From sequence record PQ864023.1: a stretch of 64,000 bases of DNA, one strand, 5' to 3'. Positions 33,570 through 34,602 of this stretch are shown here, piece after piece (the stretch's first letter is position 1; each line of letters begins with the position of its first letter). The DNA comes from Enterobacter phage vB_Ecl_SABI. Under the pieces are notes generated by a model. That model made no database searches, had not been told where the DNA came from, and worked only from the letters and a program-made list of their open reading frames with translations. A program made the position numbers and the translations under genes.

Positions 33570-34406
33570 TTATTTAACAGGTACAAACGGTGTAGAGGCA
33601 CCTGGGATCATGGTGGTAGGCAATACACCATTCCACTTGTTGATTGCTTCCAGTTCCATTACACCAGGGTTTTCACGCAGTGCATCACCACGCAGTTTGA
33701 TGGCATCAGCTTCTGCTTTTGCTTTCAGTACCACGGCGTCAGCTTCACCTTTGGCTTGCTCACGAGCCATGTTTGCTTCAGCAATACGCTGTTGCACTTC
33801 CTGCTCGCGTTGCAGAGTTTTCTGGGTGGCTTCAACCTTCGCGTTAATTGCACGCTTCACGTTGTCCGGGTATTCCGGGGCACCTACCCAGGAGATGGCC
33901 ATAATGTCGATACCGACCGGCTCCATCTCTTTTTTAACTGCATCGGCTACGCTATCCAGCAGACGAGACTTACCACCGTCAATAAACTTGTCAGTGTTAA
34001 TCAGGTTGCCCTGACGGTTCAGGATATCGGCAATACGCTGACGCAGATCCTGGTCAGTGATTTCATCGACACCTTTACGGTAGGTCTGGAAGATAGTCGC
34101 TACTTTGGTCGGATTGACCTTATAGCTGATAGCCAGTTGGTGGCCGATCTGAGTACCGTCCGACAGTTGGAAGTAAAACTTTTCGTCGTAGGTCTTCATC
34201 TGCTTGAACGTCGGGAACGTATACAGATCTTCGTTCCAGCCGATCCAGTAACGGCCAACGCCTTTGACCTGTTGGTCAACGCCTTTATCGTCGCCCAGAC
34301 GGTTGACGATGATACCTACGTTACCTGGTTCGACACGATCATAGCAGCCGGTCAACGAGGTCATTGCAACGACTGCCAGAATGCAGCCCATGATGAGTTT
34401 ACGCAT
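33570..34406 (-). CDS. SPFH/band-7 (stomatin/prohibitin/HflC-like) lipoprotein
   Basis: Lipobox 'MTSLTGCY'. SPFH core, with a coiled 'QQRIAEANMAREQAKGEADAVVLKAKAEADAIKLRGDALRENPGVMELEAINKWNG' region. Confidence 0.6.
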   Translation of the reverse strand: MRKLIMGCILAVVAMTSLTGCYDRVEPGNVGIIVNRLGDDKGVDQQVKGVGRYWIGWNEDLYTFPTFKQMKTYDEKFYFQLSDGTQIGHQLAISYKVNPTKVATIFQTYRKGVDEITDQDLRQRIADILNRQGNLINTDKFIDGGKSRLLDSVADAVKKEMEPVGIDIMAISWVGAPEYPDNVKRAINAKVEATQKTLQREQEVQQRIAEANMAREQAKGEADAVVLKAKAEADAIKLRGDALRENPGVMELEAINKWNGVLPTTMIPGASTPFVPVK

Positions 34407-34602
34407 TTTTAAATTTCTTCTTAAATTGACGATAGACGAAAGTGGCTACCAGAGCAGGCCACACCAGAGCACCGGCAATGCCGATGAACACGAGGATAGT
34501 ATCGTTAGCCGATACCATTGACGGCAGCAAGCCACCGTATAACACACCTGACACGAGTAATATGATTACTGCGTACAGGTAGAGTTTGAGGTACTTATTC
34601 AT
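34399..34602 (-). CDS. small two-TMD membrane protein (candidate NfeD/YqiJ-like partner of the SPFH protein)
   Basis: 67 aa with two hydrophobic helices. The start overlaps the SPFH gene stop. Confidence 0.4.
   Translation of the reverse strand: MNKYLKLYLYAVIILLVSGVLYGGLLPSMVSANDTILVFIGIAGALVWPALVATFVYRQFKKKFKNA

Follow-up and report, generated by a model that had tools for sequence, protein, structure and literature searches.

A candidate two-component membrane module of an SPFH lipoprotein and a two-helix hairpin in an N4-like Enterobacter phage

Described SPFH assemblies and their phage relatives

The SPFH complexes whose structures have been solved are all cages that confine a patch of membrane (PMC12478178). 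Here, we describe a pair of genes from Enterobacter phage vB_Ecl_SABI (PQ864023.1) that encode a lipoprotein of this family (278 amino acids, aa) and a small membrane protein (67 aa), as found in a stretch of 64,000 nucleotides (nt) of the phage genome, hereafter designated as the window. Nucleotide and protein searches assigned vB_Ecl_SABI to the N4-like podophages of the Schitoviridae. The counterparts of the pair in coliphage N4 are gp19 (membrane protein) and gp20 (lipoprotein), located directly after RNAPII, gp17 and gp18, the last being a "superinfection exclusion"-like gene. In Shigella virus Moo19, the SPFH protein gp31 is 97% identical to that of the window and its record reads "SPFH protein, similar to N4 gp20, predicted HflC", while the small open reading frame (ORF) gp30 is annotated as "similar to N4 gp19"; a cluster named Enquatrovirus contains an SPFH protein with 82% identity. 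The pairs of N4 and Moo19 share with the window the homology of both proteins, the gene order and the position after the RNAPII genes, but the window differs by an HNH endonuclease gene and a 108-aa gene coupled upstream instead of the gp18-like gene, and by an AAA+ gene that follows. The SPFH gene of the window is thus no discovery in itself, being a homologue of N4 gp20 with an SPFH annotation already present in close relatives. What appears to be undescribed is the family of hairpin partners, the fact that its members are almost always coupled and now and then fused to an SPFH lipoprotein, and how widely this module occurs. On balance, we are inclined to regard the two genes as a self-contained membrane module, homologous to N4 gp19/gp20, in which an SPFH ring or cage is combined with a hairpin protein on the inner membrane. 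Literature searches revealed annotation-level mentions and no functional study of N4 gp19/gp20 or of phage and prophage SPFH proteins, and a paper from 2026 that deals with an N4-like phage states that the reason for this gene "remains unclear" (PMC13239085).

Outside phages, the class of best structural matches is represented by the E. coli HflK/HflC-FtsH complex (PDB 7vhq, 7wi3, 9cz2). Features in common include an N-terminal membrane anchor and an SPFH domain facing the periplasm, after which come a long wall helix and a cap region at the C-terminus, and both systems are tied to phage biology, HflK/C through lambda CII/CIII. In contrast to HflK/C, to which it is 14-18% identical, the phage system has one SPFH gene, a lipid anchor rather than a transmembrane (TM) helix, and a separate hairpin partner. 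Fold matches were equally good with the cages of prohibitin PHB1/PHB2 and erlin1/2 (PDB 8rrh, 9o9z, 9vvj). The SPFH domain is exoplasmic in all of these, and prohibitin partners with an FtsH-type (m-AAA) protease, but prohibitins and erlins are eukaryotic organellar heteromers with TM anchors and without a small hairpin partner.

Another point of comparison is provided by SPFH-NfeD operons, such as QmcA-YbbJ (PDB 8z5g), YqiK-YqiJ, and the Pyrococcus stomatin with its NfeD-type partner protease, where the SPFH gene is likewise paired in an operon with a membrane-protein gene; for QmcA, the partner was included in the solved complex. The NfeD partner has a soluble OB-fold, to which long forms add a ClpP-like protease, whereas the phage partner has neither and belongs to an unrelated two-TM family. 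The SPFH domain of QmcA/YqiK-type proteins faces the cytoplasm. A distant homologue (ca. 28% identity, E ~2e-12) is MbpS of the Kayvirus group (Staphylococcus phage K group), with a small membrane-protein gene immediately 5' whose end overlaps the mbpS start. The Kayvirus pair differs from that of the window since MbpS has a TM anchor instead of a lipobox, MbpV has a single TM segment followed by a long charged tail, and the two genes are found among lysis genes. The SPFH nature of MbpS was noted in print by authors who speculated on a role in Tgl secretion (PMC7150955).

The lipoprotein and its hairpin partner

A sequence-only reading of the window had taken the 278-aa ORF for an SPFH lipoprotein, and profile searches bear this out. 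Residues 24-206 match Pfam Band_7 (PF01145; E=1.7e-22, 80.7 bits against a gathering score of 23.6), and the protein as a whole falls into phrog_200, annotated as "lipoprotein" (E=2.1e-96). Its N-terminus (MRKLIMGCILAVVAMTSLTGC) can be read as MRK-LIMGCILAVVAMTS-LTGC, namely a basic n-region, a hydrophobic core and a lipobox L-T-G-C ending on Cys21. An AlphaFold2 model built from a 33-sequence alignment (pLDDT 75) displays the signal helix, an alpha/beta domain (residues 21-178), a continuous helix (residues 181-245) and a short C-terminal tail. The long Ala/Glu-rich helix would be the equivalent of the coiled coil that forms the cage wall in SPFH complexes. When this model was compared with the PDB by Foldseek, the top 39 matches were all chains of solved SPFH-type assemblies, including HflK/C, prohibitin, erlin, stomatin, QmcA-YbbJ, flotillin and vault, with E-values from 7e-14 to 2e-6 and identities of 12-20%. 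These alignments spanned 243-299 columns of the 278-residue query, except for one local stomatin match of 183 columns. At the sequence level, matches in the PDB were limited to the prohibitin-2 coiled coil (E=3.6e-5). The most conserved segment among 47 aligned sequences (29-60% identity) is the C-terminal motif KWNGxLP, in which W258 and G260 are invariant and P263 nearly so, a putative cap or oligomerisation element. Collectively, these data strongly indicate that the protein is exported and that it has the full architecture of cage-forming SPFH proteins, in which the SPFH domain is followed by a long wall helix and by a conserved motif at the C-terminus.

Several labels attached to this protein family were considered and rejected. 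Band_7 is the sole Pfam domain, and because the protein is devoid of any protease domain, the term "serine protease" found in many database records is unfounded; it presumably derives from the old COG naming of stomatin and prohibitin homologues as membrane protease subunits. Orthology with HflC or HflK was also discarded, the scores against TIGR01932 (24.7 bits; cut-off 134.4) and TIGR01933 (15.9 bits; cut-off 159.4) being far too low. No second SPFH gene that would form an hflK-hflC type couple is present beside the pair, the neighbours being the 67-aa hairpin gene and the AAA+ gene. Searches of the PADLOC-DB v2 defence profiles with the SPFH protein, its partner and the 108-aa protein returned no match. 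The SPFH homologue of the Klebsiella jumbo phage fENko-Kae01 (L108 1498-2337) carries the GenBank note "identified with LC-MS/MS analysis", the sample (virions or infected cells) being unstated; the protein is therefore made.

Both genes of the pair are on the minus strand, and the 67-aa gene is thus upstream (5') of the SPFH gene, rather than downstream as previously proposed. Its product has two hydrophobic segments (approximately residues 7-27 and 35-56) and Lys-rich ends, matches phrog_1130 (E=1.2e-18), and exhibits 47% identity with N4 gp19 and 40% with the ORF that precedes the SPFH gene of the P2-like temperate phage P88 (E=2e-14). Alignment of 21 partners collected from phages, prophages, bacteria and fused proteins revealed a common signature, composed of TM1, the motif G-x-x-x-P-x-[LM]-[IV]-S-[AS]-x-[SD]-T-x-L-V-x-x-G, TM2 and a basic tail, with the P and S of the loop motif being near-invariant. 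The partner defines its own two-TM family, with its own loop motif. The N-terminus is positively charged, the loop has a net charge of 0 or -1, and the tail is positive again. This positive-inside pattern predicts an inner-membrane hairpin with both ends in the cytoplasm (N-in/C-in) and the conserved loop in the periplasm, and we consider a two-helix hairpin with a short, conserved periplasmic loop to be strongly indicated.

The sequence-only reading had further suggested that the partner could be of the NfeD/YqiJ type, a candidate that had to be abandoned. Searches against Pfam at E<=0.01 identified nothing in the partner except a weak, sub-threshold IncD match, and neither NfeD (PF01957) nor a ClpP-type domain was detected. 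Moreover, the NfeD OB-fold (ca. 90 aa) cannot be accommodated, because two TM helices within 67 aa leave about 20 non-membrane residues. Being encoded beside an SPFH gene is a feature that the partner has in common with NfeD proteins, which alone is not NfeD-defining. Likewise, small size, two TM segments and a charged C-terminus are generic features that the partner has in common with class II holins and pinholins, and the gene is not part of a lysis cassette, its neighbours being those for the HNH endonuclease, the 108-aa protein, the SPFH protein and the AAA+ protein.

Coupling, distribution and genetic neighbourhood of the pair

The stop codon of the partner gene lies inside the start of the SPFH gene, and this overlap of 8 nt (ATGCGTAA) is an arrangement that points to translational coupling; record coordinates indicate that gp19 and gp20 of N4 also overlap by 8 nt. 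Using a profile made from a few partners, a partner homologue was found directly 5' of the SPFH gene in all of 80 viral loci, which had been fetched with the SPFH query alone and comprise 28 distinct SPFH and 36 distinct partner sequences, as well as in 54 of 64 bacterial loci. The small two-TM ORF recognised from sequence alone is therefore a genuine and conserved partner. The same position was observed in N4, P88, a P1-like plasmid, PVP-SE1, Pseudomonas PSA34, Stenotrophomonas Piffle, Agrobacterium OLIVR5, Myxococcus Mx1, the Prevotella megaphage Lak-B4 and the jumbo phage fENko-Kae01, and the pair is found in phages of four host phyla. In Piffle (L012 2296-2508), the ORF annotated as a 45-aa "putative membrane protein" with one TM segment probably starts 75 nt earlier; the extended ORF has 70 aa and two TM segments, and matches the partner profile (E=4.5e-8). 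The E. coli plasmid p1303_95 (NZ_CP009168.1; L098 2727-2963) likewise carries, 5' of its annotated SPFH gene, a 78-aa partner ORF that lacks an annotation in RefSeq.

Among the top 150 representatives at 50% identity, the two proteins are fused in a single ORF in 12 clusters, to which the doubtful NCBI protein P0067 could be added. Fused forms consist of the partner, a basic linker, a third hydrophobic segment with a lipobox Cys and the SPFH domain, and this layout with a third hydrophobic segment is what the predicted topology of the partner requires. The positive-inside charge pattern extends to the linkers. A clean example is found in a 68.5-kb high-GC phage contig (L099), where the ORF is continuous, has its own GGAGG site and shows no homopolymer at the junction; the same architecture is seen in an independent JGI sequence (P0302). 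Coupled translation, almost constant adjacency and occasional union in one polypeptide are all strongly indicated for the pair. A metagenomic protein of 344 aa (P0129) was considered as a possible C-terminal fusion and rejected, as it looks like read-through into a downstream partner gene. Its SPFH ORF runs past the usual C-terminus into a partner-like sequence starting with MKKEIIK, which suggests a reversed or tandem gene order merged through a missing stop codon or an alternative genetic code.

As proposed in the sequence-only reading, the distribution of these proteins was surveyed beyond N4 and Moo19. SPFH homologues were detected by tblastn in 680 phage records from many families, and an exhaustive search yielded 981 clusters at 50% identity (E<=1e-10). 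Of the 5,426 complete E. coli genomes, 714 (ca. 13%) contain related DNA, at 417 chromosomal and 389 plasmid places. On a P1-like phage-plasmid contig (L095 7729-8304), a gene with a Tad2-like Pfam match (PF11195) is found downstream of the SPFH gene, at a distance of about 700 bp. In addition, 16 Dyella/Rhodanobacteraceae species carry the pair at one conserved chromosomal site with both flanks in common, adjoining nrdB-like and hemerythrin genes (L123-L167; e.g. L127 2697-3870). No phage genes were found in the scanned flanks of these copies, which implies that the module can work without other phage proteins, and the Dyella pair looks like its cellular version.

In the window, the genes surrounding the pair are all on the minus strand (Table 1). 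In their direction of transcription, the order is RNAPII subunits, small genes, HNH endonuclease, 108-aa gene, 67-aa gene, SPFH gene, AAA+ gene, N4 gp24-like ATPase, Dda-like helicase, rIIA/rIIB and DNA polymerase. The pair is at the head of the middle/replication region, as it is in N4. The earlier placement in a replication module was thus roughly right, while the qualification as an unexpected passenger was overstated: N4 gp19/gp20 hold the equivalent position, the label "SPFH protein" already exists in Moo19, and homologues are widespread in phages. gp20 is outside the 14 core genes of N4-like phages and is accessory (PMC4193335).

Table 1. Features of the SPFH/hairpin locus and of its surroundings; positions are those of the window
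Feature	Position	Strand	Basis
SPFH/Band-7 lipoprotein gene, 278 aa, N4 gp20 homologue (phrog_200)	33570..34406	(-)	ORF listing, Pfam, phrog, AlphaFold2/Foldseek
Predicted lipoprotein signal peptide and lipobox MRKLIMGCILAVVAMTSLTG-C21; +2 Tyr, +3 Asp	34344..34406	(-)	sequence
SPFH (Band_7) alpha/beta domain, residues 24-206	33789..34337	(-)	Pfam envelope
Single 65-residue Ala/Glu-rich helix, residues 181-245	33672..33866	(-)	AlphaFold2 secondary structure
C-terminal motif K257-W-N-G-x-L-P263, most conserved	33618..33638	(-)	47-sequence alignment
Partner gene, 67 aa, N4 gp19 homologue (phrog_1130): TM1, conserved loop, TM2, Lys-rich tail	34399..34602	(-)	ORF listing
Partner loop motif codons P27-S-M-V-S-A-N-D-T35	34498..34524	(-)	21-partner alignment
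Overlap of 8 nt, partner stop inside SPFH start	34399..34406	(-)	read in sequence
RNA hairpin, 10-bp stem, 5-nt loop, 20 nt past SPFH stop	33526-33550	(-)	RNA fold -19.1 kcal/mol, z=-2.84
HNH endonuclease (121 aa) and 108-aa protein (phrog_9905, function unassigned)	34595-35283	(-)	stop/start overlaps
AAA+ protein, 251 aa	32737-33492	(-)	
rIIA (824 aa) and rIIB (710 aa) homologues	22145-26748	(-)	
RNAPII subunits	37805-40072	(-)	

Two overlaps, ATGA for the HNH gene and ATGAATAA for the 108-aa gene, chain these genes 5' to the partner gene. The order HNH, 108-aa gene, partner and SPFH recurs in the Klebsiella phage Tribble_ER49 and is absent from N4 and Moo19. The AAA+ gene directly downstream of the SPFH gene encodes a protein that matches the ClpX/HslU-type AAA+ module only (48 bits with NCBIfam ClpX for a cut-off of 359), together with phrog_5534 (function unassigned). 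A stand-alone, unfoldase-like ATPase adjoining an SPFH gene is suggestive. Neither the 108-aa gene nor the ClpX-like AAA+ gene was retained as a component of the module, because they are not beside the pair in N4, Moo19 and P88. The RNA hairpin that follows the SPFH gene may be an element marking the transcript end or stabilising the RNA, closing a coupled block of four genes. It was not picked up by the terminator scan and is not a canonical terminator, since it has no T-run; sigma-70 promoter and terminator scans around the cassette gave fewer matches than shuffled controls. Further downstream, the rIIA and rIIB homologues are located between the helicase and DNA polymerase genes, as in N4, and bear on any idea of membrane integrity or lysis inhibition for the SPFH pair.

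Proposed mechanism, alternatives and significance

The architecture of the lipoprotein and its KWNGxLP motif lead us to propose that it would form a ring or cage on the periplasmic side of the inner membrane, in the way that HflK/C, prohibitin and erlin assemble on their own exoplasmic faces. The hairpin, in a ratio of about 1:1 with the SPFH protein, would supply the transmembrane "fence" that a lipid anchor cannot, and would use its P-x-L-I-S-A loop to dock onto the SPFH ring at its base. During early and middle infection, such a complex would wall off or stabilise a patch of the inner membrane. By analogy, the leading candidate for the client is the host FtsH protease, HflK/C-FtsH and prohibitin-m-AAA being the closest topological classes; this is a tentative assignment with a fairly low chance of being correct.

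Several observations weigh against one part or another of this scheme. The link to FtsH is drawn from family resemblance at 14-20% identity, for a protein that fails the HflC/HflK equivalog models and is encoded by a single SPFH gene rather than a K/C pair. In more divergent lineages, namely Kayvirus, GAP32, Ccr34, phiEa21-4 and Burkholderia vB_E354, the small membrane ORF upstream of the SPFH gene is not detected by the partner profile. The fusion evidence is less strong than at first sight: fused forms are mostly singletons, and cluster representatives may, on our assumption, tend towards the longest member of each cluster. The fusion P0067 (347 aa; L095, GCA_035826095.1) was downgraded, because a single base in the A-run of the overlap separates it from the unfused version on the P1-like plasmid p1303_95, a difference that may be an indel or a sequencing error. 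Finally, the lipobox of the window protein continues as CYDR, with Tyr and not Asp at position +2, and the simple +2 rule would send it to the outer membrane, away from a hairpin of the inner membrane to which it could then no longer be bound. The annotators of Piffle did name their homologue an outer-membrane lipoprotein.

Taken at face value, this last point amounts to a different picture, in which the Lol system delivers the SPFH lipoprotein to the outer membrane, and the protein would act on the inner leaflet there, for example as a scaffold or by masking a receptor, the hairpin serving its biogenesis or having a separate role. Besides the Piffle annotation and the Tyr +2, Asp +3 of the window protein, this picture can draw on close relatives, among which the lipobox Cys is present in 118 of 120 and is followed by Tyr in 60 of these 118. 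However, another 52 (62-66% identity) have Asp at +2, the classical signal for retention in the inner membrane. Aromatic residues at +2 are also said, in work by Seydel et al. from 1999, to be able to serve as retention signals. In fused proteins, the SPFH domain is tethered to an inner-membrane protein with three TM segments. Homologues from phages of Gram-positive hosts, such as Kayvirus MbpS, have an N-terminal TM anchor and point to the cytoplasmic membrane, which is the sole membrane available there. Strict genetic coupling to an inner-membrane hairpin would also be hard to explain if the two proteins resided in different membranes. The fusions, the TM anchors of Gram-positive homologues and this tight coupling favour a lipoprotein at the cytoplasmic membrane, and leave the outer-membrane location as distinctly unlikely.

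Other explanations retain the inner membrane and assign the pair a different task; two of them, superinfection exclusion and lysis timing, are speculative ideas that had been raised together with FtsH modulation in the sequence-only reading. Superinfection exclusion would be achieved by an early membrane complex that stops the DNA of later phages from entering at the inner membrane, or by a lipoprotein that masks an envelope component in the way T5 Llp masks FhuA. Such a role would suit early or middle genes coding for envelope proteins, in an accessory module that moves between unrelated phages and is frequent in prophages and phage-plasmids, as illustrated by the E. coli genomes above. In N4 and Moo19, the gene immediately 5' of the pair is annotated as P22 gp17-like "superinfection exclusion", and a T4 Imm-like gene is near the pair in Moo19. 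Yet this association with neighbours is lost in the window, where HNH and 108-aa genes are found upstream instead, and neither similarity to known exclusion proteins nor a PADLOC match was detected. In the P2-like P88, the pair is in the early lytic operon between cox and a replication gene, which is not the position of a moron expressed from the prophage, and the conserved chromosomal copies of Dyella suggest a cell-autonomous role; exclusion is, in our opinion, unlikely. Lysis timing seems quite improbable. In that scenario, the hairpin would behave as a holin or antiholin of class II topology, sequestered or regulated by the SPFH lipoprotein, and would contribute to the lysis inhibition of N4-like phages. 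The partner, small, N-in/C-in and with a highly basic C-terminus, has the general shape expected of class II holins and pinholins, rIIA/rIIB homologues are found 7 kb downstream of the pair in the window, and in Kayvirus the genes mbpS and mbpV are located between the endolysin gene lysK and tgl, with MbpV being likened to holins by the authors (PMC7150955). However, no homology between MbpV and the partner family was detected, and lysis genes are distant from the pair in the window, N4, P88, PVP-SE1 and others. A preprint that defines the SAR-endolysin, pinholin, regulator and spanin genes of N4 around gp60-gp61 omits gp19/gp20 (10.1101/2025.11.12.688109), and bacterial chromosomal copies are devoid of lysis genes in the scanned flanks. 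Hardly tenable is the view of a canonical SPFH-NfeD pair or membrane "serine protease". An operon that joins an SPFH gene and a gene for a small membrane protein does mirror SPFH-NfeD operons (PMC2636767), and many homologues are named "serine protease", but the domain content of both proteins contradicts this view.

Returning to the ring or cage with its hairpin on the inner membrane, a broader and rather doubtful proposal is that pairs of the gp19/gp20 type represent a distinct and previously undescribed two-component SPFH system, in which a lipid-anchored periplasmic cage would receive its transmembrane ring in trans from a dedicated hairpin, and which unrelated phages, prophages and phage-plasmids would use to take over a patch of the inner membrane. 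A captured patch might serve to cage FtsH, to protect the membrane against abortive-infection effectors or to keep out superinfecting DNA. SPFH cages, including those of HflK/C, prohibitin, flotillin, stomatin and erlin, are a very active topic in structural biology, and their effect on the enclosed membrane is still unclear. A compact, mobile cage of this kind, lipid-anchored and equipped with a 67-aa partner, would offer a minimal, genetically tractable system for the study of cage assembly and cargo. If its client were FtsH, or a component of DNA entry or defence, the module would illustrate a new and widespread route by which phages manipulate the host envelope.

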